NCBI GenBank assembly: GCA_963800255.1
Contig: CAWDAK010000016.1
Location: 12,815-76,814, forward strand
Reading direction: 5' to 3'
Length of the DNA stretch: 64,000 nt
Source of the DNA: an uncultured Ignavibacteria bacterium
GTDB lineage: Bacteria > Bacteroidota > Ignavibacteria > Ignavibacteriales > Ignavibacteriaceae
Shown: positions 38,694-60,633 of the stretch, one piece after another
Position numbering within the stretch: position 1 is the stretch's first letter
Layout: each line of letters opens with the position of its first letter
Notes under the pieces: model-generated
What the model was told of the DNA's origin: nothing
Seen by the model: the letters and a program-made list of their open reading frames with translations, nothing else
Database searches by the model: none
Position numbers and translations under genes: made by a program

Positions 38694-39767
38694 CTAATCC
38701 TGCTTAAATCTTGAAAGTTTGGGGAATGTAATGCTGTATTTGCCTTTAGGAACTTTCTCCTCCTTTTTATAACCGTTTCCGTCCAGCTTACCCTTTCTTA
38801 TTTCACCGCTTGCCAGGTAAAAAATGTATTCCTCATTCGCAACCGGCTTCCCATCCTGATCTTTTAATTCAATTTCAATATAATCTTCTATGAACAGAGT
38901 GCCGGAGCGTGCAGTAATTGCCGGTTTAGAAAGTGCTGTGAAATAGTAATCTGAGCTCGAGTAACCGTTTCCATCGGATGTCCCTGAAGGAACTTCCCAT
39001 TCGGCTTTTGCCTTACTGCCGCTTACTTTTGCTTCAAAGCTTGCAACCTGTGAATCTGCTTTCTTAATGTCACGTTCCCATACAAAGAAGTTAATTTTTT
39101 CACCATCATCTATTCCTTCAGTTTCAACACTAAGTTCTACTTTATCACCTGGTTTTACCAGCTCCTTAGACCACCCGGCTTTGTATATCTTTTTCAGAAT
39201 TAAACTTGCCTCTCCATCCTTTAGTGCGTCTCTTGTAATTCTTCCGTCGGTCTTTACTTTGCTGTATGAATCCTTCTTATCTGTATCTGTTAATTTATAA
39301 TCTACCCCGCTTACGGTATTTCCGGCTTTATCTACAAGTTTAAATTCTATCCAGTTCTTTTCTTTGGTAGAGGCCTCAGGACTCCCGGCTACGGCACTCT
39401 TCGCACTAGCCTTCGCTGCCGCTGATCCTGATGAACCCGCCCCGCCGCCGCTTCCGCTTCCTGCCCCTGCCATTCCTATCATCACGGTCGTACCCCCTTT
39501 TATTATTGAATCCGGTGGTCCAACGCACGTAGCCATATCACCCATCCTTGCTGCCGGCATTCCTCCGATCAGAACGGTTGGACTTCCGGGAGGCATGATG
39601 GGTCCACCCACATGAGGAATTGGCGGAACGCCCGGGGTTACCATGGGACAAACGTGCATGTCCCCAACTCTCGCTGCCGGCATATTTTCTATAAGTACGG
39701 TAGGACATCCCACTACAATGGCGCCGCCATGCGCGCAGGTATCTCCTAATCTTGCTGCAAAGCTCAT
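38694..39767 (-). CDS. PAAR-domain spike-tip protein with a ~230-aa C-terminal extension
   Basis: GDTCAHGG..VVGCPTVLIENMPAARVGDMHVCP....GPIMPPGSPTVLIGGMPAARMGDMATC..P..IIKGGTTVMIG, followed by a Gly/Ser/Ala linker and Ig-like modules. Confidence 0.85.
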   Translation of the reverse strand: MSFAARLGDTCAHGGAIVVGCPTVLIENMPAARVGDMHVCPMVTPGVPPIPHVGGPIMPPGSPTVLIGGMPAARMGDMATCVGPPDSIIKGGTTVMIGMAGAGSGSGGGAGSSGSAAAKASAKSAVAGSPEASTKEKNWIEFKLVDKAGNTVSGVDYKLTDTDKKDSYSKVKTDGRITRDALKDGEASLILKKIYKAGWSKELVKPGDKVELSVETEGIDDGEKINFFVWERDIKKADSQVASFEAKVSGSKAKAEWEVPSGTSDGNGYSSSDYYFTALSKPAITARSGTLFIEDYIEIELKDQDGKPVANEEYIFYLASGEIRKGKLDGNGYKKEEKVPKGKYSITFPKLSRFKQD

Positions 39768-39786
39768 TATTAAATTTCCTTATTCG

Positions 39787-41922
39787 TCAATTTATCTTTA
39801 CCATCGCTCCTTTAATTGTATTTATTCCGGAAGCTTCAACATTTGCCATAGTCCCTTTCACCTTAACAGCTACTCCGGCTTCCACTGTTGTATTCAATCC
39901 TTTTAGCTTATATTCTGCAGATGCTTCTGATGTAACATTCATCCCTTTTTGCTTCAGGTCGCTTTTTGCTTCTGAATTTATATTCGTTGCATTAATTTTA
40001 TAGTCTGTTTTCGCTTCGGATTTTATATTCGCCGCCTTAACTTCTGTGTCTCCCTCGGTTTCCAATTTGAAGGTTTTCGATTTGATGTTAATCTCGCCTT
40101 CAGGAGCCTGTATATCAATGCTTCCTTCTTTTGACTCTATAAGGAGCTTGTTGTTTTTTATGTCTATAATAAAATTATTGTTCTTTGGTTTATCTGACAT
40201 CTGAATTTTTTCAGCCCCGTCTGTATCATCTATCAGAAGAAAATGTCCGTTTTTGCTTGTTACAACAATTTTTGTGTTTTTGTCATCCAGCAGGATGGTG
40301 TGTCCGTCTTTCGTTGTAATGGTGATATTCTGGTTCTTATCATCCATCGTGATTTTATGTTTATCCTTTGACGTCACCTCGATTTTATCATCTTTATCAT
40401 CCATCAGAATTTTATGCGAATCAGAAGTAGTAAAAGAGATTTGTGTTTCTTTAGATTTGTCGTCAATAAGTATTTCATTACCTGCGGCTGTCCTGATAAT
40501 GTTGTGAGTTTTATTGTTTGATACAACCGGTGAAGCCTGTGAGGGATTCGGCACTGTTCCAATACCTACCGGTCTGTCTACATTCCCGTCAACGCACGCC
40601 CATAAAAGTTCCGCATCCTTGTGGTTCGGGAAGTGCATTCCGTAGCCTGATCCTGAATAACTTTGTGTTAACCTTATCGGCAGGGATGCTTCTCCGTTTG
40701 ATTTGTCGCTCAGATCAAACAGCATCTTGGCTTTATATCTGCCATGTTCGTCCAGGTATGCATATTCGTCACCGGCACCTGATTCCAGTTTGCCGCTCAT
40801 GATTCCTGAGATTTTTGGAACGGGAGTTTTCCTTGCAGGCCTGAAATCAATATCAAATGGTATTGCTTCAAAACGGCATTCATATATCGCATCGGGAGCC
40901 CCGAATTGGTCGGGAATTATGTACAGTCCCTTTTGAGAACCATAGCGGATAACCTTGGTGATGATATATTCTTCGTTCCAGCTCTCACGGAAATGATTGC
41001 TCATTTTAAAACGATAGCCGGGAGTAAATAATCTGCTGTCTGTCTTGCCGGTAAATATCTGGCTTTGTGCGATGAATTCCTGGTTCCTTACTTTTGCTAG
41101 AAATGAACCTGCTTTTTCATCCTCAAAATTGTCTCCGTAATCATAGTAGGTTCCCGGTGAATCAGAATTAATTTTACTTTCTGCCATTAATTGTTTTTCA
41201 GGAAATAGATAGTTGTAGTCTTTAAGCTGAACTTTTCCTGTAACTACCTTTTCACTTGAGGTGAGTTCGAGGATAGTTTCAATATTGGCCGAAGGTTCCT
41301 GTTCCTGGTTATAAATTATATCTTCGGCCATGTCTGCTTTAGGCAAATTGCTGTTATCATCAGTGAAACACACTACCTCTTTATCACCGCTCTGATCGAA
41401 ATAATAATAAATGCCGAAATGTTCCAGCCGCCTGTTCAGAAAGTTAAAGTCGGTTTCTCTGTATTGAACAGCAAACTCGCTTACGGGATAATTGTTTTTC
41501 AAATCAATTTTGTAGTCGCTGCTGGATAGCCCGTTATTCTCAAGAGCGGCTTTTATCAGATCACTAATCCCGACGTTCTGGTAAACTTCATTCCTGAAAG
41601 TAAGTCCGGAATTCCACAGCCGGGGTACAAGCACAACCTTGTAGAAGTAATGGTACTTTGAGTGTCCGAATTGCTGGAATTGTGAAATAATTCCGTGGAC
41701 GGTTGTCGTGCTTTTATCAGATCTGATTAGAGTAAAGGTAGCTGCCTTATTAAGGATTTTCGATGAATCAATATTAGGATCATCAATCGCTAAATATATC
41801 CGGTATTCGTATAACCCCGAAATCTCCTCCTGGCCTTCATATGACATAACCCCGAAATTGGCATCTTCCAGTAAGGTGAATTTAATATTGTAATACGGTT
41901 GATTGGACATTTGATCCGACAT
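39787..41922 (-). CDS. vgrG: T6SS spike protein VgrG (TssI)
   Basis: gp27-like N-terminal part, SGSGYGMHFPNHKDAELLWACVDGNVDRPVGIG (gp5 OB-fold block), then a long beta-helix of repeated ..I.M.DK...I.. units. Confidence 0.9.
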   Translation of the reverse strand: MSDQMSNQPYYNIKFTLLEDANFGVMSYEGQEEISGLYEYRIYLAIDDPNIDSSKILNKAATFTLIRSDKSTTTVHGIISQFQQFGHSKYHYFYKVVLVPRLWNSGLTFRNEVYQNVGISDLIKAALENNGLSSSDYKIDLKNNYPVSEFAVQYRETDFNFLNRRLEHFGIYYYFDQSGDKEVVCFTDDNSNLPKADMAEDIIYNQEQEPSANIETILELTSSEKVVTGKVQLKDYNYLFPEKQLMAESKINSDSPGTYYDYGDNFEDEKAGSFLAKVRNQEFIAQSQIFTGKTDSRLFTPGYRFKMSNHFRESWNEEYIITKVIRYGSQKGLYIIPDQFGAPDAIYECRFEAIPFDIDFRPARKTPVPKISGIMSGKLESGAGDEYAYLDEHGRYKAKMLFDLSDKSNGEASLPIRLTQSYSGSGYGMHFPNHKDAELLWACVDGNVDRPVGIGTVPNPSQASPVVSNNKTHNIIRTAAGNEILIDDKSKETQISFTTSDSHKILMDDKDDKIEVTSKDKHKITMDDKNQNITITTKDGHTILLDDKNTKIVVTSKNGHFLLIDDTDGAEKIQMSDKPKNNNFIIDIKNNKLLIESKEGSIDIQAPEGEINIKSKTFKLETEGDTEVKAANIKSEAKTDYKINATNINSEAKSDLKQKGMNVTSEASAEYKLKGLNTTVEAGVAVKVKGTMANVEASGINTIKGAMVKIN

Positions 41923-42099
41923 TGGGGTACCTTTTTCAGTTTACAATTAAAAATTAGCAATTATCAATTAACGAAATGAATGGCTTCGCAGTCGTTTAGC
42001 GGCTGATTAAACGGAGAGAATCACGAAATAATAACTGGCTGTATATTCCGGATAATCAGCTTTAAGGATCAGGCCGGTATCTGACCAGGACTGATGTTC

Positions 42100-44724
42100 C
42101 TATACAAACTTGTACTTATATGAACCGTCTTTGGCCTTTGTTACTGTAACTTTCTCAGGACTTTTACCTTCAGCCATAAAACCCAGTAACTGTGAGGATA
42201 TTTCCGGAGCCAGTTTTTTATCTACAATTGCATCTATGTTCCTCGCTCCTGTTTCAGCTCTTGTACAGGAATCAACAATGTCGTCAATTACAGCTTTGTG
42301 GAATTCCACCGTCAGGTTCTGGTTCTGCTGCAGTTTCTTCTTAATCTTCCCGAGTTTCATTTCTACAATGGGTTTAAGCACTTCCTTACTTAGAGGCAGA
42401 AAGACTATCGGCTTTAACCTCCCTAAAAATTCCGGCCTGAAATACTGGTTCATATAAGGTCGAAGTTCTTCAAGCAGGTCTTCAGGGTTTGTCATCCCCT
42501 CATTGTATTTTTCAAAAAGCACTTCCGATGCAAGGTTCGAAGTCATAAATATAGTAGTGTTTGAGAAATCGATATTTCTCCTGTCAGCGTCCTGCAGCAT
42601 ACCTCTGTCAAACACCTGCATAAATAAATCAGTAACTGAACTATTTGCTTTTTCAATTTCATCCAGAAGTACAACACAATAAGGCCGGCGTCTGACGGGT
42701 TCACTCAATGATCCTCCTTCTCCGTAGCCTACCAGTCCGGGGTCTGCGCCTATCAGCCTCGATGTATTATACTCATTCTGGTATTCAGTCATATTAAGTG
42801 TAACCATAAATCTCTCGTCACCGAATAATACCTCTGCCGTTGCCCGTGCCAGCTCAGTTTTACCTACACCGCTGGGACCAACTAAAAGAAAAACACCGTT
42901 TGGTCCTTCTTCTTTTTTAATGCCTACTTTTGCCCCCCTTATTACATCAGCAATCTGCTTTACAGCATGGTCCTGTCCAACAACTCTTTTTTTCAATTCC
43001 GTCTCAAGCTGAAGCAAGGTAGTCATATCATCGCGTGTCATATTACCAACTTTTATACCTGTCCATGCTTCAATAACTTCGGCAACCGTGTTCGCTGTAA
43101 CTTCGGCAAAAACCTGCGGTGCGGGATCCTGTAATGCGATTAGTTCTTTTCTGATCTTTGAAATCTCTTCTGCTATAACAGGGTCTTCTTTGCTTGTCCC
43201 GTTCCCGTTACCCGCAAATTTTTTCATTCTCAGTTCCATCAGCTTCCTTATCAGCTCGCTCTCCTTTGTCCATTTGTCTTCATTAGTTTTTATGTCCAGC
43301 TCCAATTTTATCTTTTGATCCTTCAAGCCTTTCAGTATTCCCTGGTCAATTACAACATCCATGTCCGAATCTTTCTGTTGGGTGTTGATTGCCATGTCAA
43401 CCGACTTTAGCCTGCTGATCATTATTTCAAGCTTTGCCGGCTTGCTTGTAAGCGACATCTTAACTCTAGTTGCAGCCGTGTCAAGCAGATCTACAGCTTT
43501 GTCGGGCAGCTGACGTCCGGCTATATACCTCCTCGACAGTTTTACAGCTGCTTCAAGGGCTCCATCGGTAATATGTATTCCATGGTACGCTTCATATTTT
43601 GTCTTAATTCCGCGCAGCATTAAAATAGCCTTTTCATCATCAGGCTCGCCAACATGTATTGGCTGGAACCTTCTCTCAAGAGCCGCATCTTTCGCAAAGT
43701 ATTTATTGTATTCAAGATACGTGGTCGCTGCTATAGCCCTGAATGAACCTCTTGCAAGCGCAGGTTTAAGAAGGTTGGCTGCATCTCCGCCTCCCGCAGA
43801 TGCACCGGCCCCTATAAGAGTATGTGCCTCGTCAATAAACAGAATTGCCGGTACAGGTGAATTCGTCACCTCATTTATAACAGCTTTTAGTCGTTTTTCA
43901 AATTCACCCCGCATTTTGGTTCCTGCCTGCAATGAACCCATATCCAGGGAATAGATCTGGTTGTTTTTTAAAATATCAGGTACCTCATCCGCAGCAATTT
44001 TTATAGCAAGTCCTTCAACCAGGGCGGTCTTTCCTACTCCAGGTTCGCCGAGCAGTATAGGGTTTGATTTTTTCCTTCTGCACAATACTTCAATCACCTG
44101 GATAATTTCTTCGTCCCTTCCGAGGATCGGGTCTATCTTTCCGTCCTTTGCCTGGGTTACCAGGTTGGTGGTATATATGTCAAGCACCGTTCCGTCAGCA
44201 GGGATTGATTTGGCTTCCTCCTGCGACAACATTTCAGAAGAAACTGATTCATCTTCTACCGACCCTTTAACAATATTATAGAACTCTGTCCGGAGGTCCT
44301 CCTGTTTAACGGGGGCCAGTATATCCATCAACCTTGTGCTTATTATCTGCTCGGAGGCTATAAAGACTTCAAAAAAAGCACCTGACCTGATCCTTGTTTC
44401 GTGATGATGTACTGAACTTGTAATCCAGGCCTGTTCAAGTAATTCAGTCAGCAAAGGCGAGAGCTTAGGTTTTCCGCTGTTTCCTTTTTCCATTTCATCC
44501 AGGTTTTTCAGGCATCTAGCCTGAACATCACCGGCGTCAACAGCATAGTGTTTCAGTATAAGTGGAATATCTCCCTGGCCGTCTTCAATAAATGAATTCA
44601 GCAGATGATCAAATGTAATTTCATAATGCCCACGGTTTATGCCCAGTCCTGTTGCTGTGTCCAGGTTCCTTACCAGGTAGTTATTCAGTTTTAAAAGAAG
44701 TGATTTGAGATCCTTACTTTGCAT
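42100..44724 (-). CDS. clpV: T6SS AAA+ ATPase ClpV (TssH)
   Basis: Two Walker A sites, GEPGVGKTALVEGLA and GPSGVGKTELARATA. Clp N-domain. 874 aa. Confidence 0.9.
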   Translation of the reverse strand: MQSKDLKSLLLKLNNYLVRNLDTATGLGINRGHYEITFDHLLNSFIEDGQGDIPLILKHYAVDAGDVQARCLKNLDEMEKGNSGKPKLSPLLTELLEQAWITSSVHHHETRIRSGAFFEVFIASEQIISTRLMDILAPVKQEDLRTEFYNIVKGSVEDESVSSEMLSQEEAKSIPADGTVLDIYTTNLVTQAKDGKIDPILGRDEEIIQVIEVLCRRKKSNPILLGEPGVGKTALVEGLAIKIAADEVPDILKNNQIYSLDMGSLQAGTKMRGEFEKRLKAVINEVTNSPVPAILFIDEAHTLIGAGASAGGGDAANLLKPALARGSFRAIAATTYLEYNKYFAKDAALERRFQPIHVGEPDDEKAILMLRGIKTKYEAYHGIHITDGALEAAVKLSRRYIAGRQLPDKAVDLLDTAATRVKMSLTSKPAKLEIMISRLKSVDMAINTQQKDSDMDVVIDQGILKGLKDQKIKLELDIKTNEDKWTKESELIRKLMELRMKKFAGNGNGTSKEDPVIAEEISKIRKELIALQDPAPQVFAEVTANTVAEVIEAWTGIKVGNMTRDDMTTLLQLETELKKRVVGQDHAVKQIADVIRGAKVGIKKEEGPNGVFLLVGPSGVGKTELARATAEVLFGDERFMVTLNMTEYQNEYNTSRLIGADPGLVGYGEGGSLSEPVRRRPYCVVLLDEIEKANSSVTDLFMQVFDRGMLQDADRRNIDFSNTTIFMTSNLASEVLFEKYNEGMTNPEDLLEELRPYMNQYFRPEFLGRLKPIVFLPLSKEVLKPIVEMKLGKIKKKLQQNQNLTVEFHKAVIDDIVDSCTRAETGARNIDAIVDKKLAPEISSQLLGFMAEGKSPEKVTVTKAKDGSYKYKFV

Positions 44725-44767: not shown

Positions 44768-45790
44768 TTAGTCGGGAACAGAAAGGTATTCTTCGTTCGG
44801 TATGTAGACATTAAACTCCTCAAGAGAAGGTTTGCCCAGCCAGAAGGTGGTACCCAGCTTCAGCCTATCGTCATCCCATGAAATCGATTCGATAGTATCA
44901 GCTTTAATTATGAATTTAATATCGTATTCAAGTCCGTCGTTGAGATATAATTTAAGGAGTTCATTCAATCTTTTAGAATTTTCGGTATGCGGAAGAAAAT
45001 TAAGGTAATCCCCGAAAGAAACAGGTCCTATTTCAAGACAGATCCTGCTCATATAATCGACGGTGGTTCTTCCTATAAAACTGTTTTTTCCGAGACTGAA
45101 ATCATCGCTGCCAAGGGCGGGGACGTCTTCAAGTTCAACCCAGCGGGGAATAAATTCTTTAATTTTGATGGGAAATTGCGGGAAGATATGTGAGAGTAAG
45201 ATCCTTAAACCCTCTTTGCTCCTTACACGCCGGCTGAATACACCGGCAAATTTTATAAGCGTAAAATCTGAAAGTGATGAGGTCCTGTTTCCTGTAAAAG
45301 AGCCTTTGCCTATAAATGAATTTATCCTCTGAGAAATTTTATTTTCAGGATTATTATTTAAATGGAGGTAAAAGCGGTATTTCTTCCACGACTGGTAATA
45401 AAGCCAGTAAAACCTGTTATTAAATATATCCAGGAAATTTTGAAGCGGAATATTCCCCTCACCGAGGATTTTTTCCTGGAAAACTATCTGTTCATGATAG
45501 CATCTTGGAAGGGGAGCATTTATTCCATATAAACCAAGGAAGTTAAGAACAAACTGTATATCATTCTCTTCGAGAGATACCGACCTGATGTCTGTAGGAG
45601 GATAGGCGTAATACTGGCCGGGCCGGAATTTTAATCCCTCCTGGTCAAAAAGATAATCCTTCCTTCCCGGATTATTCTTCTTCGAACTAATTTCACTTAA
45701 CCAGACAGCCTGCCAGACATGGTATTCAGGTCCCTTCTGCAGAATGTCTTCAATTATACGGGAAGTATTTCTCCCAGTGACGGGTTCCAT
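44768..45790 (-). CDS. tssG: T6SS baseplate subunit TssG
   Basis: Size, position after tssF with an overlapping start, and the N-terminal ...YHVWQAVWLSE and LNFLGLYGINAPLP blocks are typical of TssG. Confidence 0.8.
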   Translation of the reverse strand: MEPVTGRNTSRIIEDILQKGPEYHVWQAVWLSEISSKKNNPGRKDYLFDQEGLKFRPGQYYAYPPTDIRSVSLEENDIQFVLNFLGLYGINAPLPRCYHEQIVFQEKILGEGNIPLQNFLDIFNNRFYWLYYQSWKKYRFYLHLNNNPENKISQRINSFIGKGSFTGNRTSSLSDFTLIKFAGVFSRRVRSKEGLRILLSHIFPQFPIKIKEFIPRWVELEDVPALGSDDFSLGKNSFIGRTTVDYMSRICLEIGPVSFGDYLNFLPHTENSKRLNELLKLYLNDGLEYDIKFIIKADTIESISWDDDRLKLGTTFWLGKPSLEEFNVYIPNEEYLSVPD

Positions 45791-47610
45791 TTGTAGCTGT
45801 TATTTGTTCCTGATTCAGTAATTTTTAGGAAGACGTATGAATTGATAGTTACATATTGCGACAGAAAGGAATTTAAAACCATTCCCATCAGGTTAATTTC
45901 ACCTTCTCCGTTTTCGAACTCTTTGGCATCAACCTCAATATGAAACTCTATACCCCTTATTAAACTCTGGTTCATCATTTTATTAACCAGCCGCGGCTTA
46001 TGGATGACCTTTATGCTTTCAATTCTTTTTTTATTCGGGTGATTCTGTGTGTTAGTCCAGTTATACAGATTTAAGATGCTCTTAAAAGTATTCAGATCTG
46101 CCAGCGTCGAAAAGTTGACGGACAGATGTGCAATCAGCGACCATAAATAATTATTCTTGTCGGGACAATCCTGAACCTCTGTCGGTGTTGTAATATTATA
46201 TGCCTCAAGTCCCGGAGGGAAATCAAGAGGTTCTTTAATTGAGCCGGTTTCCAGGTAGGCAGAAGGAAGGAAACCATTTGATAATACGGCTTCTATACTT
46301 AAAGTTTCCTTTGGGAAAACATCTTCCTCCATGCTTGGTCCAAACAGCCTGATAAAAGTTTCGGACATATCGTTCAGTACCTTTTTACGCCGGATTGAAT
46401 AAAATCTTTTGAAATTATATTCCGGGCTGGAGGTATCAAGTATGTCGTGCGCCGTAATGGGTATATATTTATACTGCTCAGCACGATTTTCACTGATGCC
46501 GCTTACAACGTCGATTGAATAAATTTCCCTGCTTTTTCTTCTGTAAAGATCAGGAATTATATAATATTCCGGCAGCCTTTGGGTAACGGAAACTTCTTCA
46601 GCCGGCCGGGAGAAGAGGTTAACTATCGGAACACAATTCAACGCAATATTGCTTTTACCGGGGAATTTTTCCCTCATCATTTTCCGGTTGAAATCGATTT
46701 TGATTTCCACGTTTGAAGATTCACCATCAGCGGTGAACTTATCAAGGCCGGATATATCCAAAAAAAAGAATTTTTCAGGGAAAGCAAAATACTCCTGCAG
46801 CAGCCTGAATCCTGTGAATGATTGCTTAGCATAGGGCAGAATTGAGTATTCATCCTCAATATATTCTTCACCGGAGGAAAGCTCCGGAACACTGATCTTA
46901 AAATTATCGATTTTCCTGAATACTGATCTTTCATTTACAGCTTCCCTTACAGACACACCGGAAACAAATTTGGTCAGGAACAAATGCAGGTTATATTTTA
47001 CTGAAGATGAACCCTGCAGATAGATTCTGAACCGGCCCATTTTCAGTGAATTATAATCAACATTTCTGTCAAGCTGCAGTTTCAGGATAATTGAAGTTTT
47101 TCCCTGGGGAGTTTCTTCAACTGTAACATCAGCCAGCTTCACAGGACGTACTGTAAATTCCTGTGTGGTTCTGAAGATAAATTCAGCCGGCTCATCTTTT
47201 TCAGTAAGTCTTGTTCCGGTACCTGAACCCGATTGAACTTTATACTTTACTTTATACTTACCCGTCTGTGTCTGTATTTCACTCCCTTTTTTTATGGAGA
47301 CAGGTTCCGTTAATGCTCCTGATTTAATGTTTGCCTGCAGTATAGCACATGAAGGAAAAGATTTAAGGAGATTCGGGAAAAGTATTTCCAGTATTCCTCC
47401 TGCTATTTCAGGAAATTCATCATCGAGCCTTTCATGTATCCGCCCTGCAAGGAAGGCAAATCCTTCGAATAACCTTTCTACAAAAGGATCTTTCCTTTCC
47501 CGTTCGCTTAGATGAAGCCTGGATCCGAGAGTGGGATGTTTTTTGCTGAACTCCTCCCCGGATGTCTGCAGAAAGTTATACTCCCTTTCAAAATATTTAT
47601 CGGTACTCAT
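45754..47610 (-). CDS. tssF: T6SS baseplate subunit TssF
   Basis: N-terminus YFEREYNFLQTSGEEFSKKHP.....L......DPFVERLFEGFAFLAGRI is the canonical TssF start. 618 aa. ATGA overlap with tssE. Confidence 0.85.
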   Translation of the reverse strand: MSTDKYFEREYNFLQTSGEEFSKKHPTLGSRLHLSERERKDPFVERLFEGFAFLAGRIHERLDDEFPEIAGGILEILFPNLLKSFPSCAILQANIKSGALTEPVSIKKGSEIQTQTGKYKVKYKVQSGSGTGTRLTEKDEPAEFIFRTTQEFTVRPVKLADVTVEETPQGKTSIILKLQLDRNVDYNSLKMGRFRIYLQGSSSVKYNLHLFLTKFVSGVSVREAVNERSVFRKIDNFKISVPELSSGEEYIEDEYSILPYAKQSFTGFRLLQEYFAFPEKFFFLDISGLDKFTADGESSNVEIKIDFNRKMMREKFPGKSNIALNCVPIVNLFSRPAEEVSVTQRLPEYYIIPDLYRRKSREIYSIDVVSGISENRAEQYKYIPITAHDILDTSSPEYNFKRFYSIRRKKVLNDMSETFIRLFGPSMEEDVFPKETLSIEAVLSNGFLPSAYLETGSIKEPLDFPPGLEAYNITTPTEVQDCPDKNNYLWSLIAHLSVNFSTLADLNTFKSILNLYNWTNTQNHPNKKRIESIKVIHKPRLVNKMMNQSLIRGIEFHIEVDAKEFENGEGEINLMGMVLNSFLSQYVTINSYVFLKITESGTNNSYKWNPSLGEILPV

Positions 47611-48059
47611 TCTGAATCCTTATCTAAAGTAACTTTAGTCCAGCCTGTAGTAGAAAATTCTGTGAGCAGGATTTCTTTATTTGAACTGTCCTTAAGTTTA
47701 ATGATTATTTTCAGGGCAGCTCTCAGGGTTTTCTGATCGAATTCAGAATTCTGTATCTGAACTTCACTTACTCTTGGTTCGTATTTCAATATTACTTCCC
47801 TGATCTCCTTTTTTAAGGATTCTACGGGATTATCTGAAGCAAGGTAGATCTGAAGAATATCTGAGATACCAAAATCGGGAAGATGTAATATTGATCCGCG
47901 GCGGGTGGTCAGGATCATCCGGAGGTTCTCTATAATACTCAGGCTCAGCTTCTGGTCTTCGGTCAGATGCTCGAACTGCTGGGGCCCGATTTCATCGGGA
48001 TTAACAACTTCCGATACGAACTGACCCAGTAGAATATTGTACAGGCTTAAATTCTTCAA
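47607..48059 (-). CDS. tssE: T6SS baseplate subunit TssE (gp25-like)
   Basis: IENLRMILTTRRGSILHLPDFGISD is a GPW/gp25 motif. 150 aa. Confidence 0.85.
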   Translation of the reverse strand: MKNLSLYNILLGQFVSEVVNPDEIGPQQFEHLTEDQKLSLSIIENLRMILTTRRGSILHLPDFGISDILQIYLASDNPVESLKKEIREVILKYEPRVSEVQIQNSEFDQKTLRAALKIIIKLKDSSNKEILLTEFSTTGWTKVTLDKDSE

Positions 48060-52404: not shown

Positions 52405-53253
52405 TTAAATTAGTTGCAAAAATCTATCAAGGCTTACATCGGAATATTCAGCAGGAGTACCCGCTGAGGGACCGAACTGTATAACCCTTTTATCTTCAGT
52501 ATCATCCGACATCAGATCAACAAAGCTGGTGCTGTTAAGTTTAAAAGGGAATATGATCACTCTGAATTGCTCATCATCCGTTTGGTTCCAGAATATTGAA
52601 GCTTGCCGGAAGGAAATGTTCATTTTTTTATTGAATGCCTCTATAAAAAAACCTGCATCGAAAGTGAAGCTTGAATCTTCGGAACAGAACAGGATTCTTA
52701 TAAAAGTTGAATCGGAATAGGAAAGTTCTTTAAAGTCCTTAACTGTAAAATTAACATTGGTTCTTTTGATCAGCTGCTCTAAAGTGGTGATAGAGAGGAA
52801 ATTCTGAAAATCTTTTCCAGGTAATTCTTCATCTGCAATCGTTGCGTCAAAGTTCTTCAGAGATGCATTCAATGATAACAGATCTTCCTCTTTCCTGAGG
52901 TTACTATCAAGACCGGAAAGTACCGGCGTCAATTTAGCGGGAATAAGAGATGTAATTTCGAAATTTCTTAAAGGTAATACTGAAAAGATTACCATTGGAA
53001 ATTCTCTTCCGCTTTTATCATTGCTCGGATAAATTATTCCAGTTACAGCGCGCTCTGAAGAAGGGAAGGGAATGTAGAAGTTTGTCGGTGGAAGTATTTC
53101 ATATTTCCGTCTCCATTCAGGTTTTAATTTTAACCTGGCGTTTGCTAAGCCGTCCTGTATCCATCTGTCAATGAAGAGGATTTCTGGGAGACCGGAATTA
53201 AATTTTACAAAATCATTAAACTCAGGCAGCTTTCCGAAATAGCCAGAAGACAT
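52405..53253 (-). CDS. tagF: T6SS-associated regulator TagF (DUF2094)
   Basis: MSSGYFGKLPEFNDFVKFN....F.DRWIQDGL matches the TagF N-terminal signature. I chose the start at 53253, so the ORF-track start at 53343 no longer overlaps the tssM end. Confidence 0.75.
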   Translation of the reverse strand: MSSGYFGKLPEFNDFVKFNSGLPEILFIDRWIQDGLANARLKLKPEWRRKYEILPPTNFYIPFPSSERAVTGIIYPSNDKSGREFPMVIFSVLPLRNFEITSLIPAKLTPVLSGLDSNLRKEEDLLSLNASLKNFDATIADEELPGKDFQNFLSITTLEQLIKRTNVNFTVKDFKELSYSDSTFIRILFCSEDSSFTFDAGFFIEAFNKKMNISFRQASIFWNQTDDEQFRVIIFPFKLNSTSFVDLMSDDTEDKRVIQFGPSAGTPAEYSDVSLDRFLQLI

Positions 53254-53293
53254 TACATTTGTGTTTTTTTGAAGCAAACCGTATGAAGTATTA

Positions 53294-56200
53294 TTAATTG
53301 ATTTTATCCGGAAGCTGAAAAGTACTGAAGTAATCCCTGGCAAAAGGATTCCGTGAACTACCGGAGCTTAGCTGGTACGAAACAGTTACATCGTAGCTTC
53401 CGTCTTTCTGAAAGAACCAGTTGAAGTTATATTGTGAAGAACTTCCGCGTGATACAGTTGCTTCCTGAAGCAGCCTGAACATTGCCCATTCACCTTCGTA
53501 TGACTTTGAATCAGAACTTCCCATATTCCTTATCGAAATGTTCATCCTTGCCCCGGGAGTTCCTTTTGCTCCCGGCCAAGTAAAATCTGTCCAGAAGGGA
53601 GCTCCCATTTTGTAATAATCCTCTTCGCCGTCAAGGTAAAGGTAAACCTGTTCTACTATGGGTTTGCCCGATCCTACAGCTTTAGATTCAGGAAGCTCAG
53701 GCTTCAGACGGAAACCAATACTGAGATCACCGTTTTTAAATAAGGTTCCGGTGATATCATCCGCCTTTTTCAACGCTGCTATGAATCTGTCGGAGATACT
53801 TAAACCATCATTTTCCCACTGACTGACTTTCCAGCGGTCCTTGTTTATGAAAGCGCTTAATTCATCGTTGTAAAATGACCATAAAATTCCCGACCCCGGT
53901 TTGAAGAAATCTTTGAAATCCTGTATGGGGGCATCGTTTTGTGAATCCTTAAACGGGAACGAAGACGACAGCGACTTATTAAAGGTATCGGCAACTTTAA
54001 TCTTCCATTGCTGGTTAAGATATTGCCCGGCGTCAGCAAGAATTGCTTCCCAGGAGAGCTTAACTGGGTCAGAGAATAAACTCTGCAGCGCTGGTGCGTT
54101 GAACGCCGATCCGCGTATCACCTGAAGAGAAGTCGGGAATTCCGCCGTCCGCTGGGAGAGGACTTTTACCGCATAATCTTTTGCAAGGTCCTGGCCGCCT
54201 TTTACCTGGTCAAGCACCCCGCCTATAATTCCGTATTGAGCAAGAATTGCATTCATATCGGCACCGCCTGAACCATCTGCATTGCCCAGAACAAATTTTA
54301 TATATTTTTTGGTTTCATTCAGACTACCCTGGTTCACATCCAGTCCGGCAAACTGGTAGTTCTTCTTAGCTGAATCCGACGGGGCCTGGATATCCACAAT
54401 AATGCTTAACTGAGTCGCGAATAATTTGAGAACAGAAATCAGGGGTGAATTTACAGGATCGCTTAATATTTTCATATTGTTGGCTGCAAGCGGGACATTA
54501 TCAAAACCGCTATACCTTATGCTTTGCAGAAACTGGAGCCAGTTTTGTTTATAATCATTAAGATAGAGTGTAACCAGTCCTTTCTTAATTTCCTCGCTGT
54601 CGTAACTGCCGGATACAGGTTTAAGATTAGTTTTCCCTAGCACCCAGTCTTCTTTGCCCGGATTTGTGCTCTCGTCTATAATAGCCTGCTTAATATAATT
54701 CATCCATCCGTCTGCGGTGAATATGTAGGGAACTCTCTGATTTGTGGTCATCACGCTCAGGTACCTTCCACCAATAGCCTGTTCGAGGGATAATTCATTG
54801 GGGAACTGGTTTATTCCATTTTGTTTAAGCCGCGCATATATACTCTCAGCATTTGGTTTATACTGTATACGGTCTCTTACCATGCTTATTAATAAATTAT
54901 CACTCCTTACCGGAAGTACTTCTTTGTCGGGCAGTAAGCTGACATAAAAAGAGAGATAGTTCCTGAAAAGGCTTTTCAACGAGTCTTTTTCGCTCGTTGA
55001 TGCTGCAGGATTAGAGGAAATATATCTTGACTCTAATATCCCGTCAAAAACATGTGTAAGAAACTTCTGCTCGGTTGTATCAAGCCTGGTTCTTTCAGTA
55101 CCAAGCAGCAGGTATGATTTAAGATAATTATAAGTAATCTCACCCGGGTAATCTTTTCCGTTTGCATATTCGTTCAGACTTTTCACAATCTCATTATAGA
55201 TATTCTGCTGAAAGAAGTCGGAAGTTTTTTTAGTAAAAATACCTTCAAGGTAGGGAAGAGTGCTTTTACTCCTGTCCATACCAAAGCTGATGAAAGCATC
55301 ATTACCCCTGCCGTCGCGTATACTTTTTATCAGGCCAATGAGGCTGTCGGTTTTAGAAAAATTGCTTAACAGATTCCCGGCCCAGTTTATTTGAAGGAAT
55401 GAGGATGAAATTTCATTTTCCTTTTGAAGAAAACTCCTGCTTCCATTGTAGCCAACTAATGTGAAAAAAGAAAACAGTAAAAGCAGCACAACAGACACCC
55501 CGATAGTTGCCAGCCTTGCTGAACTTTGCTTTTTCACAGTTCCCTTTGTCTGTCCCGTAGAAAAATCCTGGTCTCCTATTACAACATCATTAAGCAGGTC
55601 TTTTATAAAATAATTCTTTTTCTCAACTGCTTCACCGGTATCAGTATCTGCGGGTTCAGGCAGATTAAACTGTTTTGCAATTTCCCTTATCGCTATATCC
55701 AGCGGTAGTCCCTCCTGCGTTCCGCTGGTAAAATAAAATCCGCGGAATACAGGATTATCCTGGTAAGGATTATGCTGAAAAACTTCTCCGATAAGGTAGG
55801 TTAATTTCTGCTGCAGTGAATTGAACTGGAAAGGGAAGAGAAAAACTTTTCTTCTTTGTTCTCTCTTTTAAAGGACTGCTCAACCTGGTTGTACGGATCT
55901 CAAATAATTTTTTGGATAACAGTTTGAATTCGCCCTCAAAAATTGCCTTTGGATCCCTTGAAAACATCTGCTGAGTGTTAAAAGTAGCACCCCAGATCTG
56001 TGACCTTTCGGTTTCGCTGAAGTCGCCGTAATATTCAACAAAACCCTGTACAAGATCGCACTTGGTAAAAATGAAGTAAACCGGAAAATTTACTCCGAGT
56101 GTTTCAATAAGCTCATCAATTCTCTTCCTCATATTTTTGGCATGTTCCGCAAGCTGATCTTTATCGGCATTTATCACTTCATCGATGTTTATTGCAAGAA

Positions 56201-56831
56201 TAACCCCGTTAACTGGTTTTCTTTTCCTGTTTTTCTTTAATACTTCAAGGAAAGCAATCCATTCGGGCCGGTCTTCAGTTTCAGAAACATATCGTCCGGC
56301 TGTATCAAGAAAAATTGCCTTTGTAGAAAAAAACCAGTCGCAATTCCTTGTGCCTCCTACACCCCTGAATCCCTCCTTACCGAATGGGAATTCAAGTCCT
56401 GAGTTCTGTATGGCAGTGGTCTTGCCGGCTGCAGAGGGGCCTATTATCATATACCAGGGAAGAGCGTACAGGGCGGCTTTACCCGATTTACCGTTCGCTA
56501 TTTTCGAATTTTTAAGAGAAGCGATGGCCGCGTCAAGCTGTTTTTTGAACTGTTCTATTTCAGCCTTTTTCTCGGGACTAAGATTTTTCATCTGATCATC
56601 AGCCTGGCTGCCGATTGATTCCTCAATCTGATTAGCCTTCTGAGCATCCTTCATTTTTTTGTAAAGGATTAGTATGGTAACAACCATAAAGATGAAAACC
56701 GCAATTGCGATCTGAACCAGGAATGACATTCCGAAGATAGGTCCGAGGACTAGTACCAGTACGATAAGCAGAATCCCGGCAATTGCCATTATAGAAGACG
56801 GATTTTTTATAAAATTTACAATAGAATTCAT
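53294..56831 (-). pseudogene. tssM: T6SS membrane-complex subunit TssM (IcmF), split by a +1 frameshift near 55845..55860
   Basis: ORF 55770..56831: 2 TM plus Walker A GPSAAGKTTAI. The frame of ORF 53294..55537 stays open upstream to ~55868 and reads KVFLFPFQFNSLQQKL...NPVFRGFYFTSGTQEGLPLD, the canonical TssM block, then a third TM and the IcmF C-terminal region. 56831-55537 = 1294 = 3n+1. Confidence 0.9.
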
Positions 56832-56860
56832 ATTAAATATTTAAAATTTGAAGAAATGAA

Positions 56861-57556
56861 TTATGCGATAAGGCTCTTAAGAGATTCAATAATTTCATCA
56901 GCGGCTGATGTAGCGGAAGAAGACATTATTACGTAGAAGACGACAAAAATTATTACGGCTGAAACCGGGTAGATCCAAACAGGCAGCCTTCTTCCGGAAC
57001 TTACAACAACACCCTCTGCAGGTTTTGCATTGGGTGAGATTGAGTCGATCGACTGATACATCCCGGGATGAAGCTCCATATTCAAATCATCTATCACCCT
57101 TCTTAATAGTTCAGGTGATTGTAGCTGGTATTTTCCCTTAAAACCGAGTGCAAGACATAAATAATATATTTCAAGCACATCTTTATTTACACTGCTTCTC
57201 TGCCGTAATTCTTCCAGGTATGTAAAGAATTCCTCACCGGCATTAAACGTATCGAACATCCTGATCTGCAGGGGATCTGACAGCCAGACTTCCTTCTGGT
57301 TCCAGGCCGAGCTTATGATGGTTTCATCCAGGAACGCTACCAGGGCAAACGTAGCCTTTTTTACTTTCTCGTTATCAATTCCCGCGCTTCTGGATTCCCG
57401 CTCGAAACGTTGAAACATTTCCGTCACCCTTGCTTTAAGTGACTCAGGATTTCCATAGTTGTTTGTTGATCTCAGCTGCAGAATCAGCATAAAGCATTCT
57501 GAAGCTATATCTGAGATTGGTATTTTCAGATCAGATTTCTTTGAAGGGATATCCAT
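56861..57556 (-). CDS. tssL: T6SS membrane-complex subunit TssL (DotU family), no PG-binding extension
   Basis: FMLILQLRS......ESLKARVTEMFQRFERESRSAGID.EKVKKATFALVAFLDETI and a single C-terminal TM (VWIYPVSAVIIFVVFYVIM). Confidence 0.85.
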   Translation of the reverse strand: MDIPSKKSDLKIPISDIASECFMLILQLRSTNNYGNPESLKARVTEMFQRFERESRSAGIDNEKVKKATFALVAFLDETIISSAWNQKEVWLSDPLQIRMFDTFNAGEEFFTYLEELRQRSSVNKDVLEIYYLCLALGFKGKYQLQSPELLRRVIDDLNMELHPGMYQSIDSISPNAKPAEGVVVSSGRRLPVWIYPVSAVIIFVVFYVIMSSSATSAADEIIESLKSLIA

Positions 57557-57586
57557 TCTAATTCTTATTAATTATTAGTAAAATTA

Positions 57587-58933
57587 TTAATCACCGGGAA
57601 GAAGCAGAACAAGCTCCATCTGGAGCGTTTTGAATTCTGAGGCAATAAAAAATGCAATATTATTCTTTGCGGTTATTTTGTCCCAGAACCTGCCTTCTTT
57701 ATTTATTTTGAAGTAGTGAGCGTTTTCATTCACTGAAACACCTACAGGGGGACGCGCAGTGTATTCAAGGGTTACTCCCTGTATCCCTGCCTGGTGAACT
57801 GCAAAGATTTCTTCGTAGGCTGAGATTTTAATATTCTTTGGCAGTTCGGTGATAATCTTTTTTTCAGGAATGTCACCCGTTACCGAAACAAAAAACTGGG
57901 AAGACATCTGGTTGGGCGATAACTGGCCCACGTACAAAGTATCCGCCTGTTTTCTTAATTGAATAACAACATCTCTCCGCTCCAGTGTCTTTTGTACATT
58001 CAGCATCTGGTTTATATCAGAAATAACCTGGTTAAAAACTTCATTCAGATGCCTGTGATCGTAGGATGGGAATTCGGAGGTTTTAATACCCATATTTGAA
58101 TATGTTGATAATTGTCCCGCAAGATTCAGAAGCAGCACGTACAGGTTCTCAGGATGAGTATTCTGTGACTGATAATAATAATTAAGAAGAGGAATGAAAG
58201 AATTTATAGTCTGCAGCATCATCAGAATTTCAACATGCATTAAAGATATTTCCGGCTTCTGAACGGAAGTCTGTTTACGAAGCTCTTTGCTTTTCGAGAC
58301 AAGCGTACTAAGAAGTTTTCTCACAGATTCCTGGAGTGAGGGCGAATTCGATACCGAAAGGGAAGGAGGGATGTAGTTCGTATCCATCGTATATTTTCCA
58401 TCTGAACTCCTTGCTATCTCCCCGATTTTTATAGATGTAAAATCTTCCAGAGATTCATCCCCGAATTTAAATTGGAAATTCGGTTTTGCTATTCCCACAG
58501 ATCTCATATTTGAGCCGGTATTGTAATCAGTCATTTCTATATTATGAAGATTAAAACGTGAGTTGGGGTAGCCGGCCCCGTCAAGCTGGCAGTTGTTTCC
58601 TGAAATATTTTCTAATGGCAGGGCCAGGAATACATCAAGTTTTTCCGCTGTGGCCTCAAAAAGATCCTCAAAATTCCTGCTTTTAGGAAGGGGATCATTA
58701 TCAGGTATATTAAAACCGAATCCATCCGGCATTATTCCAGAACACTGCACAAACCCGAAAGAACCTCCGGAAAGCGCAGCCAGGTCAGTCTGCAATGATT
58801 TAATTCCCCAGAGACCAGGATTTAACAATGCTAATTTTGAGTTCAGGTTATACTGATTATATCTGTCTGCCTGCTGGAAGTGATGAGGGTCCAGCTTCAT
58901 TCCCTCATACCAGACAACTTTTTGAAATTTCAT
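57587..58933 (-). CDS. tssK: T6SS baseplate subunit TssK
   Basis: N-terminus KVVWYEGMKLDPHHFQQADRY is the canonical TssK signature. 448 aa. Confidence 0.85.
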   Translation of the reverse strand: MKFQKVVWYEGMKLDPHHFQQADRYNQYNLNSKLALLNPGLWGIKSLQTDLAALSGGSFGFVQCSGIMPDGFGFNIPDNDPLPKSRNFEDLFEATAEKLDVFLALPLENISGNNCQLDGAGYPNSRFNLHNIEMTDYNTGSNMRSVGIAKPNFQFKFGDESLEDFTSIKIGEIARSSDGKYTMDTNYIPPSLSVSNSPSLQESVRKLLSTLVSKSKELRKQTSVQKPEISLMHVEILMMLQTINSFIPLLNYYYQSQNTHPENLYVLLLNLAGQLSTYSNMGIKTSEFPSYDHRHLNEVFNQVISDINQMLNVQKTLERRDVVIQLRKQADTLYVGQLSPNQMSSQFFVSVTGDIPEKKIITELPKNIKISAYEEIFAVHQAGIQGVTLEYTARPPVGVSVNENAHYFKINKEGRFWDKITAKNNIAFFIASEFKTLQMELVLLLPGD

Positions 58934-58969
58934 TTATTTCCTATTCTCTCCCTAATGAAAAAATAATAC

Positions 58970-59416
58970 TTATTCTCCTTCCTGTACAGACAGTGAATTC
59001 GAATGAATTTTTATTGAAACATCCCCTATACCTTTTACAGGGATAATTTCAAGCCAGCCGTCGGTTGCGGGCGAGTGAAAATCACCTACTACTCCTATAT
59101 ATGCGGCGTCTTTTTTAATTTCATAATCGTTGATTTTAAACGACTCCTCAGGGGCCATCAGTTTTTCATACTTAGCTCCCGGTATTAAGTCATCACCCAG
59201 CGTTTCATCAGGACTGCGCTGCAATGACTCAAAGCTTGCGTGGCTGAACTTATCAGAATTTCGCAGCTGGTAAATTTTTACCACAACCGCGTTGCTCTCG
59301 TTGCAGTCGGCATCGCAATGAAGCGAAACATTTATTGTTTCCGGTCCTCCTCCGCAGCCGTACATATAAAAAAGCAGAACCGGAATAAAATAAAGTATAG
59401 AACTTTTAATTTTCAT
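58970..59416 (-). CDS. tssJ: T6SS outer-membrane lipoprotein TssJ
   Basis: Lipobox FYMYGCGG. VVVKIYQLRNSDKFSHASFESL is the typical TssJ block. 148 aa. Confidence 0.75.
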   Translation of the reverse strand: MKIKSSILYFIPVLLFYMYGCGGGPETINVSLHCDADCNESNAVVVKIYQLRNSDKFSHASFESLQRSPDETLGDDLIPGAKYEKLMAPEESFKINDYEIKKDAAYIGVVGDFHSPATDGWLEIIPVKGIGDVSIKIHSNSLSVQEGE

Positions 59417-59430
59417 AATAACTCCCCGGA

Positions 59431-60633
59431 TTAATATTCGTTTTGAGATTTGCCTGAAAGGATCCTTTTCTGGTATCCTTTCATAAATGATGGTCTGAAA
59501 AATTTCTTTTCAATATGATAAGGGTCCGATGCATATTTCTGATAATTCTTTTTTAATGCATCCAGAATCTTTGATTTTTTTGCAAACGGAATTATCTTTC
59601 CGATATCGGGGCCTGACTGTTTGCTTTTGCTATCCAGCTCCTTTTCAATGATTTCAGGATCCAGCGTTTCCAGCAGTGATTTTGTGCCGTCGGTAATAGA
59701 TAACTGATACCCGTCAAGAAGTCCGATCTGATGCGACAGCAATTTGGAAGTCTCTTCTTTCAGCAGCCCAAGGCGTTTCTTTTCATCTTCAGCAGAAATA
59801 TCCGGACTAAAAAGGAATTCCTTGAATTCTTTCAATGAGCCTGTCGGTATCGTGTGGTAGATCGTCACCCCGAAAAATTCCTGTCTGAACTGAAGGAAAC
59901 CCTGGATAAGTTTTGAGAAAGTATCAAGCATGACGTCAATGGTTTCTGTAAAATGGGAACTAAGTGAATAATCCTGAATAGATGAAGGTGCTTCATAGGC
60001 AGCTTTTTCCTGTTTAACGGGCTTTGGAGCTGAACTTTCAAAAACATTCTGCATGCCTGAAGGTTGAGCGGCAGGTACTTTCTTTCCCAGGAAATGCTCT
60101 GCAAAATATCCTGCCAGGTATTCGTTCGGCTCGTTTTTCTCCAGGAAATTAAAACTCTGCATCACCGAGAACTTAAGCATTTCCATTTTCATGGGGGAAT
60201 CATCCCCGGCAAACTTATCAGATATTTTATTGAGGTTTTCTACAATATTATTAACCTCTTCCGCAAAAGGACTTGAAAAAACCATTGTTTTCTGGTCATC
60301 TTCGTTGGAAATTACCTGTTCTTTAACCAGTTCTGCTTCAAGTTCATATTCACCTACCCTTATTATATCACCTGACTTTAAGGCATTTTCTTCATTCGGA
60401 AGGAGCGCCGCTTCATTCAAATAGGTGAAATTCGCAGATTCAAGGTCAACCAGCTGCAGGATCCCTTCAGTATCCACAATTTGTGCGTGCCTGCGTGAGA
60501 CCACTTTAAATGGATCCGGCAGAATTACGTCATTTTTTTCGTCACGGCCTACGCTTACAGGAAACCGGTTAAAATCCAGCACTGACGAGAAAGACGGATC
60601 AGACTTCTTACTGATTTTTAATTTTATTTTCAT
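59431..60633 (-). CDS. tagH: T6SS FHA-domain protein (Fha/TagH-like)
   Basis: N-terminal FHA: FPVSVGRDEKNDVILPDPFKVVSRRHAQIV...LQLVDLESANFTYLNEAAL. First gene of the minus-strand block. Confidence 0.75.
   Translation of the reverse strand: MKIKLKISKKSDPSFSSVLDFNRFPVSVGRDEKNDVILPDPFKVVSRRHAQIVDTEGILQLVDLESANFTYLNEAALLPNEENALKSGDIIRVGEYELEAELVKEQVISNEDDQKTMVFSSPFAEEVNNIVENLNKISDKFAGDDSPMKMEMLKFSVMQSFNFLEKNEPNEYLAGYFAEHFLGKKVPAAQPSGMQNVFESSAPKPVKQEKAAYEAPSSIQDYSLSSHFTETIDVMLDTFSKLIQGFLQFRQEFFGVTIYHTIPTGSLKEFKEFLFSPDISAEDEKKRLGLLKEETSKLLSHQIGLLDGYQLSITDGTKSLLETLDPEIIEKELDSKSKQSGPDIGKIIPFAKKSKILDALKKNYQKYASDPYHIEKKFFRPSFMKGYQKRILSGKSQNEY

Follow-up and report, generated by a model that had tools for sequence, protein, structure and literature searches.

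The closest described relatives of the gene cluster reported here are type VI secretion systems (T6SSs) of class i (T6SS-i), such as those of Vibrio cholerae (VipA/VipB) and of a Cronobacter sakazakii plasmid, which represent subtypes i1 and i2, and the H1-T6SS of Pseudomonas aeruginosa (subtype i3) with its PpkA-PppA-Fha1-TagF circuit. T6SS-i is also found in Roseithermus sacchariphilus (CP030158) of the Rhodothermales, a lineage of the GTDB phylum Bacteroidota that bears the type IX secretion system (T9SS), and Bacteroidia such as Bacteroides fragilis and Flavobacterium johnsoniae carry T6SS-iii. Russell et al. are said to have reported in 2014 that T6SS-iii does without TssJ, TssL, TssM and TssA and has TssN-R instead. 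Abby et al. (2016) describe T6SS-iii as devoid of TssJ, L, M and A and using TssN-R, and found T6SS-iii and T9SS in Bacteroidetes only, T6SS-i being treated as mainly proteobacterial. Morgado and Vicente (2022) listed seven T6SS-bearing phyla, Ignavibacteria and Calditrichota not being among them. Here we describe a cluster of 16 T6SS genes in a 64,000-nucleotide stretch of DNA (the window; positions 12,815 to 76,814 of contig CAWDAK010000016.1, forward strand, GenBank assembly GCA_963800255.1) from the metagenome-assembled genome (MAG) of an uncultured Ignavibacteria bacterium. We consider it highly probable that the cluster is the sole T6SS of an uncultured member of the Ignavibacteriaceae, that it has the canonical T6SS-i composition and lies on a native, long-resident island of 45.6 kb, that it belongs to a divergent sublineage of T6SS-i, and that a frame change in its tssM gene is an assembly error.

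The open reading frames (ORFs) of the window were scanned with Pfam and NCBIfam profiles, small ORFs lying outside the Pfam scan. All 16 T6SS genes called in a preliminary description of this DNA were matched by these profiles at their coordinates between 38694 and 60633, all on the minus strand. They include 13 of 13 core components (TssA-TssM) in one locus, together with PAAR, TagF and Fha:

59431-60633, minus strand: fha/tagH, FHA and T6SS_FHA_C domains (PF00498, 55.7 bits; PF20232, 24.6 bits, cut-off 23.7; TIGR03354, 67 bits, below the cut-off of 120)
58970-59416, minus strand: tssJ, outer-membrane lipoprotein with a signal peptide ending in ...YMYGC21 (PF12790, 70.6 bits; TIGR03352, 62 bits, cut-off 31.6)
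57587-58933, minus strand: tssK, baseplate (PF05936, 369 bits; TIGR03353, 354 bits, cut-off 100)
56861-57556, minus strand: tssL (DotU), short form whose C-terminal part has a single hydrophobic helix, residues 189-207 (PF09850, 177 bits; TIGR03349, 169 bits, cut-off 90)
53294-56831, minus strand: tssM (IcmF), two ORFs at 55770-56831 and 53294-55537 (TIGR03348, model positions 4-333 with 326 bits and 431-1168 with 285 bits)
52405-53343, minus strand: tagF (PF09867, TagF_N, 79 bits; TIGR03373, 79.9 bits, cut-off 41.2)
50714-52381, minus strand: tssA, ImpA_N domain and VasJ-type C-terminus (PF06812, 66 bits; PF16989, 135.5 bits; TIGR03362, 221.9 bits, below the cut-off of 230.1; PDB 6rju, 109 bits)
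50211-50711, minus strand: tssB, small sheath subunit, with a GGAGG ribosome-binding site (PF05591, 120 bits; TIGR03358, 118.5 bits)
48700-50166, minus strand: tssC, large sheath subunit, with GGAGG (PF05943, 319 bits, and PF18945; TIGR03355, 462 bits, cut-off 271.5; VipB in PDB, 331 bits)
48152-48640, minus strand: hcp, tube, with GGAGG (PF05638, 64.6 bits; TIGR03344, 82.8 bits)
47607-48059, minus strand: tssE, gp25-like (PF04965, 47.7 bits; TIGR03357, 72 bits)
45754-47610, minus strand: tssF (PF05947, 436 bits; TIGR03359, 472 bits, cut-off 260; PDB 6giy, 231 bits)
44768-45790, minus strand: tssG (PF06996, 224 bits; TIGR03347, 221 bits)
42100-44724, minus strand: clpV/tssH, AAA+ sheath recycler with two Walker A motifs (TIGR03345, 1006 bits, cut-off 885)
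39787-41922, minus strand: vgrG/tssI, spike (PF05954, 223.5 bits; TIGR03361, 320 bits)
38694-39767, minus strand: PAAR tip with a C-terminal extension of ~250 amino acids (PF05488, 82.4 bits in two stretches; PAAR equivalog, 37 bits, below the cut-off of 124)

Most of these genes exceed the NCBIfam equivalog cut-offs by a wide margin. Three scores (TssA, TagH and PAAR) fall under strict NCBIfam cut-offs, and the corresponding Pfam models pass. The tssJ, tssL and tssA calls thus survive the profile searches, TssA falling only slightly short of TIGR03362 and passing with both ImpA_N and VasJ. TssM has two N-terminal transmembrane helices, a GPSAAGKT P-loop and a third transmembrane helix; no peptidoglycan-binding domain was found in the short-form TssL. 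One point of the preliminary description did not hold: the block is not uninterrupted, as tssM consists of two ORFs in different frames. The strong ribosome-binding sites that it had noted before hcp, tssC and tssB are present, with a full GGAGG 8-12 nucleotides 5' of all three starts. Genome-wide, 4.3% of long ORFs have a full GGAGG at that position versus 1.3% in an in-gene control, and given this rarity the three high-copy structural subunits have unusually strong sites. A scan for sigma-70 promoters was uninformative (46 sites versus 43 expected), the two best minus-strand sites, ~400 nucleotides upstream of fha, being no more than a lead. The genome holds one copy each of TssC, Hcp, VgrG and PAAR, so there is one system with one spike and there are no orphan vgrG islands. 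An extracellular contractile injection system or a phage-tail module was also considered and is ruled out by TssJLM, TssA and ClpV.

Because TssJ, TssL, TssM and TssA are present, the cluster is a T6SS-i by content. It shares with the T6SS-iii of Bacteroidia the GTDB phylum, a T9SS in the host and homologous TssB, C, E, F, G, K, Hcp, VgrG and ClpV, but unlike T6SS-iii it has TssJ, L, M and A; no search was made for TssN-R. When 400 Bacteroidota genomes were searched with PF05943, all but one of the 11 matches were accompanied by TssM, and the profile or the first-look filter evidently misses the TssC of T6SS-iii.

The position within T6SS-i was assessed with TssC trees, which contained the related loci, 80 named loci fetched by profile and nine subtype-labelled references (labels from Table S1 of PMC9113992), with only one or two references for each of the subtypes i1, i2, i3, i4a, i4b and i5. 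The window TssC is 31.6-37.8% identical to the labelled i1-i5 references (35-38% to i1/i2) and less than 40% identical to all 579 plasmid-borne TssC, and its identity to proteobacterial, plasmid and Rhodothermales TssC stays at or below 43%. In the IQ-TREE phylogeny (LG+C20, 84 rows), i5, i4a together with i4b, and i3 branch off before a clade with 100/100 support. This clade is made up of an i1 group (Vibrio, Halomonas, Campylobacter), an Acidobacteriota group, an i2 group (enterobacteria, Neisseria and also Rhodothermales) and an Ignavibacteria-type clade, which includes the window TssC, is itself supported at 100/100 and has a stem of 2.12 substitutions per site. Both the gene content and this placement with i1 and i2 agree with the T6SS-i assignment made in the preliminary description.

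A search of 1.84 billion representative proteins added six further TssC clusters at 46-52% identity, the other full-length matches reaching at most 41%. These six metagenome clusters join the Ignavibacteria-type clade (100/100) and shorten its stem to 1.38, and the clade uniting i1, i2 and the Ignavibacteria type has 91/96 support in the tree with metagenome representatives. The window TssC nests in none of the named subtypes i1, i2, i3, i4a, i4b or i5, since its clade, whose stem is 1.4-2.1 long, branches off without joining the labelled i1 or i2 group. All clade members examined, whatever their phylum label, share the gene order tssJ-K-L-M-tagF-tssA-B-C-hcp-E-F-G-clpV-vgrG. On sequence grounds, the locus is a T6SS-i allied to i1/i2 that belongs to a separate, collinear and long-stemmed sublineage, mostly from FCB-related (Fibrobacterota-Chlorobiota-Bacteroidota) and Acidobacteriota-related uncultured bacteria. 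Clusters of Melioribacteraceae, Calditrichota, Aminicenantes and unclassified MAGs belong to the same sublineage, whose order of 15 genes is fixed. As an observation on the added clusters, four of the six (P0002, P0003, P0005 and P0006) are natural TssB-TssC fusions of 654-660 amino acids, and two of them (1226 and 1261 amino acids) have a further N-terminal extension of ~700 amino acids.

The locus resembles the i1/i2 systems in its 13 core components plus PAAR, its TssJLM complex, VasJ-type TssA, ClpV and Fha, and V. cholerae VipB is the best solved relative of its TssC (331 bits). It differs from them in its separate long stem shared with non-proteobacterial MAGs, its T9SS-bearing host, a kinase/phosphatase module and its own clade-conserved gene order. 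Like the window, Roseithermus has a T6SS-i in a T9SS-bearing lineage of GTDB Bacteroidota; however, the Rhodothermales TssC is ~41% identical and is placed with the proteobacterial clade that includes i2, not with the Ignavibacteria type, which points to separate acquisitions. The Rhodothermales-type loci L094-L099 (in genomes G236, G240, G213, G416, G538 and G503) also have a second, very divergent VipB-like protein in a frame of 630-680 amino acids, 17-30 kb from tssC.

The position of the sublineage may prove distinct enough for subtype status once proper references are included. In a bolder form, the clusters of Ignavibacteria, Melioribacteraceae, Calditrichota and Aminicenantes would make up a subtype-level T6SS-i lineage ('i6') with a fixed order of 15 genes, old in FCB-related environmental phyla, co-resident with T9SS and with the TssB-TssC fusions as distant members. 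We put this forward tentatively and with some doubt.

The host is an uncultured member of the Ignavibacteriaceae, a soil or sediment bacterium, with a genome of 4.46 Mb in 29 contigs. The genome encodes a SprA translocon and at least 150 T9SS C-terminal sorting domains, two of which (PF18962) occur in the window at 1156-3372 and 17561-21184, so that both the sorting domains and the FCB-group affiliation proposed earlier are confirmed. A TssC pattern scan of one genome per GTDB species retrieved 73 related loci with up to 98% TssC identity, nearly all from MAGs of Ignavibacteria/Ignavibacteriaceae. The next relatives were found in Melioribacteraceae (77%) and in Calditrichota, Aminicenantes, KSB1 and unclassified MAGs (57-72%). 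There was no cultured isolate among the 73 loci. The family includes two genomes with closed chromosomes, G042 and G083, and in both of them rpoB and the T6SS lie on one contig, which excludes a binning artefact.

Within the genus, nine of ten sampled genomes have the T6SS, as do 38 of 200 genomes and 12 of 56 genera of the family, the TssM profile and the TssC protein giving equal numbers. The exception in the genus, G069, allowed the limits of the element to be drawn. On its contig C12, the orthologues of window positions 16867 and 62517 adjoin with 175 bp between them, and this clean empty site defines an island of 45.6 kb with the following features:

16868-62516, no strand: presence/absence island of 45.6 kb with the whole T6SS locus (empty site in G069)
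17561-21184, minus strand: T9SS cargo protein of 1207 amino acids (PF18962 C-terminal domain; SBBP, ASH and FlgD_ig)
61324-61933, minus strand: ParE/Phd toxin-antitoxin cassette upstream of fha (PF05016, PF02604)

G069 is 99% complete, contains neither TssC nor TssM, has an RpoB 97% identical to that of the window's genome and, on the RpoB tree, branches within the congeners that possess the T6SS. In the congeners G025 and G118 this site is occupied by the island, congener contigs reaching up to 979 kb, and it is most parsimonious that G069 lost it. The gene for the 1207-amino-acid T9SS cargo, a surface protein, is absent from the empty site of G069, gone together with the T6SS. The ParE/Phd pair, which lies between the promoter region of the T6SS and the right-hand limit of the island, is inside the island in this genome only, being absent there in G025 and located on another contig in G118, and its variable placement marks it as a mobile cassette.

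The island of G025 is flanked on both sides by a 60-bp direct repeat with 93% identity (L259 156-214 and L260 179-237; G025:C4:894005-894063 and 933278-933336), which includes the 5' end of the left-flank gene. Only the left copy was found in the window, the right-hand copy being absent there. A search for att-like repeats around the island in the window found only short interspersed repeats that are common in the genome. Such interspersed or tandem intergenic repeats occur at 61070-61189 and 15789-15815; at 17040-17548, 10594-10650, 9768-10079 and 5649-5695; and at ~10319-10489. They belong to families with 27-35-bp units, 70-150-bp units and a ~170-bp element, with many copies across the genomes of the genus, and a tandem array is present at G025:C3:399228-399886.

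The clean boundaries of the island could be taken, together with the contamination estimate of 8.5% for the MAG and the fact that T6SS-i is commonest in Proteobacteria, as marks of a recent horizontal import from Proteobacteria or of a mis-binned proteobacterial contig. We regard this as extremely improbable, because, besides the 43% ceiling noted above, the nearest relatives of the locus are all from Ignavibacteria and allied MAGs, the same island occupies the same site in congeners on long contigs, and closed Ignavibacteria chromosomes have the system too. Genes for T9SS cargo occur within the window, it contains no tRNA, and no integrase was found among its ORFs scanned with Pfam (small ORFs unscanned). 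The core genes also have a native G+C content (0.417 versus 0.410 ± 0.027 for genome ORFs; 0.407 at third codon positions), both values being within one standard deviation of long ORFs. Nothing points to a recent import from Proteobacteria.

Comparison of the TssC and RpoB trees of the family showed that most genera are monophyletic on both. However, members of genus g17 are spread over three positions in the TssC tree (approximately unbiased test, p = 0.0001), and g20 and g42 nest in the g1 clade on TssC, whereas g20 groups with g50 and g16 on RpoB. Some Ignavibacteriaceae genomes have two T6SS loci of the clade (G070, contigs C39 and C4; G093, C12 and C5; G010, C25 and C26), with TssC 80-87% identical to that of the window, and the second copy in G093 is heavily disrupted. 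We conclude from this mixture of tree patterns and two-locus genomes that the locus descended vertically within genera and was lost repeatedly, and that it either moved between genera of the family or underwent the sorting of old paralogues. In a sample of 400 genomes of the GTDB phylum, nine had TssM, seven of them outside the window's family. The out-of-family TssM loci placed in the trees are of the Rhodothermales type, with ~40% TssC identity, except one (G499/L091, 60%) that falls in the window's clade, and hence at least two separate T6SS-i lineages entered the phylum. The question of vertical versus horizontal origin raised in the preliminary description is therefore settled in part: the locus is vertical within genera, native in composition, long resident and patchy across the family, with transfer or paralogue sorting between genera, and its spread across phyla may have been vertical or horizontal.

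The frame change in tssM lies at residue ~322-345, between the ORFs 55770-56831 and 53294-55537, while relatives have tssM as one open frame of ~1180 amino acids. Alignment with 28 relatives places a one-base length difference in a polypurine tract at ~55861-55870. The AAAA/TTTTT runs that follow the tract within a few bases were also considered as the position of the indel, and were rejected since the alignment puts it in the preceding polypurine tract. The same tract has +1 or -1 changes in five other MFD MAGs (L009, L039, L064, L071 and L074) from several genera, and a second common indel site lies at residue ~976 (L004 and L016). Indels in the tract were found in none of ~30 short-read MAGs. 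The MFD MAGs are presumably Microflora Danica long-read assemblies. Across the 15 core genes of all loci, we counted 89 frame changes in 154,387 aligned residues of MFD MAGs (1.92 per 10 kb) and one in 206,483 aligned residues of all other MAGs (0.02 per 10 kb), so that long-read MAGs are ~100-fold enriched in T6SS-gene frameshifts. Two further genes of this genome are split. The kinase gene ppkA, downstream of the core genes, is present as 382 plus 201 amino acids instead of the single frame of 573-576 amino acids seen in five relatives, and sprA (G000:C1:111995-118419, outside the window) is split by a frame change near C1:112700-113000. The split of sprA, which is needed by at least 150 T9SS substrates, points to assembly quality. 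The tssM shift is most likely, judging from these alignments, a homopolymer or purine-tract error of long-read assembly, and the gene would be intact in the organism. The recurring indels in the tract look like a context-specific basecalling or polishing error across assemblies.

Two other explanations would make the shift real. In one, this strain has a system in decay, and the frameshifts of ppkA and of tssM, an essential gene, would mark a young pseudogene cluster on its way to loss as in G069. Two frame disruptions within one 40-kb locus, the loss of the whole island from G069 and the patchy distribution in the family all fit this scenario, which we nevertheless find unlikely: the remaining 15 core genes show no breaks and score above curated cut-offs, sprA is split too, the excess of frameshifts in long-read MAGs extends to all T6SS genes, and the tssM site bears recurrent indels only in unrelated long-read MAGs. 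The other explanation, that the one-base shift is biological and regulated, through phase variation or through transcriptional or translational recoding at a conserved polypurine tract, is very improbable in our view. Six genomes from at least four genera do have +1 or -1 changes at the same tract (TssM residue ~325), with the site at residue ~976 as a second, and Gueguen et al. are said to have described in 2014 a precedent, a poly-A tract in tssM of Citrobacter rodentium. However, the tract has only 4-5 identical bases, which is too short for known slippage; the affected genomes are all long-read MAGs, with ~30 short-read MAGs in frame at the site; a recoding signal should be present as a fixed feature in the DNA of every relative, which is not the case; and the sign of the change varies among genomes. 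An assembly error thus accounts best for the shift, and with half of the copies in long-read MAGs carrying artefactual frameshifts, automated counts of 'complete' systems are too low in such data.

Several points weigh against our overall reading of the locus as a native, divergent T6SS-i. The TssC trees hold T6SS-i references only, with none from T6SS-ii, -iii or -iv. The position of the Ignavibacteria type relative to i1 and i2 is weakly resolved (84/59 for a sister relation to i2 in the 84-row tree; 57/34 and 51/61 with metagenome representatives), and the long stem of the clade invites long-branch artefacts. Codon usage of the core genes is slightly offset, with a distance of 0.075 versus 0.0485 ± 0.008 and only 1.2% of random gene sets as far, although this measure mixes amino-acid composition with codon choice. 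Homology and the positions of the genes are what we infer the function of the machine from, including its secretion activity, its targets and its regulation. We do not read the small codon-usage offset as a sign of foreign origin, and the composition is native. All in all, the locus is a real, complete and compositionally ordinary T6SS-i, and its host is unexpected but not shocking.

The co-directional, tightly spaced minus-strand block continues past PAAR, downstream to 21215. It comprises 30 ORFs, all in the same direction, and apart from two exceptions the gaps between them do not exceed 92 nucleotides. Behind the PAAR gene it contains the following:

30484-38685, minus strand: candidate effector and immunity genes behind the spike (roles suggested by position only)
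24756-29862, minus strand: threonine-phosphorylation module (Pfam), composed of the next three entries
28375-29862, minus strand: FHA-SLT fusion, a second FHA protein fused to a lytic transglycosylase (Pfam)
26488-28353, minus strand: PP2C phosphatase (PP2C_2, 58.9 bits)
24756-26481, minus strand: Ser/Thr kinase with PEGA (ppkA), two overlapping ORFs (Pkinase, 189.5 bits)
21215-24704, minus strand: two TPR/CsgG-like proteins and a 368-amino-acid protein at the distal end of the block (Pfam; gaps of 22-51 nucleotides)

Three of the proteins encoded behind PAAR have recognizable features, namely one of 1291 amino acids, in which an OmpA-like stretch and the motif HECGH occur, one of 429 amino acids with PG_binding_1 and one of 283 amino acids with the motif HEIAH. 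The PAAR-adjacent genes are likely to encode effectors and immunity proteins, and their wall-binding and HExxH features suggest bacterial targets.

The gene set for control of the PpkA/PppA/Fha/TagF type is complete: alongside the apparatus, the locus encodes a Hanks-type kinase, a PP2C phosphatase, an FHA protein and TagF, as in the H1-T6SS of P. aeruginosa. This set suggests post-translational gating of the H1 type. The two systems differ in other respects: the window TssC lies outside the i3 clade and scores 281 bits with P. aeruginosa TssC1, below VipB; no TagQRST homologues were found by Pfam; and here the kinase has a PEGA ectodomain and there is the second FHA protein, a fusion with a lytic transglycosylase.

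By analogy with characterized T6SSs, the lipoprotein TssJ would join TssL and TssM, with its P-loop and three transmembrane helices, in an envelope-spanning membrane complex or channel. TssE, F, G and K, together with VgrG and PAAR, would form the baseplate and spike, and TssA would prime the Hcp tube and the TssB/C sheath to polymerise. On contracting, the sheath would eject the spike with its cargo, and ClpV would disassemble the contracted sheath for recycling. Since TssL has no peptidoglycan-binding domain, anchoring to the wall or its opening would probably come from accessory proteins of the block, the candidates being the FHA-SLT fusion, the OmpA-like protein and the PG_binding protein. 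Firing would probably be gated by the co-transcribed kinase, the PP2C phosphatase and the Fha switch, together with TagF. The cargo probably consists of the cell-wall-directed proteins encoded right behind PAAR; if so, the machine would serve as a weapon for attacking other bacteria.

A full TssJLM-type machine is thus common in one Ignavibacteria genus and recurrent in its family, beside a large T9SS secretome. No counterpart came up in the literature: the genome papers of Ignavibacterium album and Melioribacter roseus mention no T6SS, and full-text literature searches found none described in Ignavibacteria, Melioribacter, Calditrichota or Aminicenantes, which bears out the earlier remark that such a system is poorly characterised in this kind of lineage. 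The locus represents a distinct branch that is not sampled by reference sets from cultured Proteobacteria, which matters for subtype classifiers, among them SecReT6 and the TXSScan trees. The finding bears on interbacterial antagonism in soil, sediment and anammox-reactor communities, of which Ignavibacteria are core members. It also bears on where T6SS-i arose: should the 'i6' lineage prove true, T6SS-i would not be essentially a proteobacterial invention that leaked outwards.

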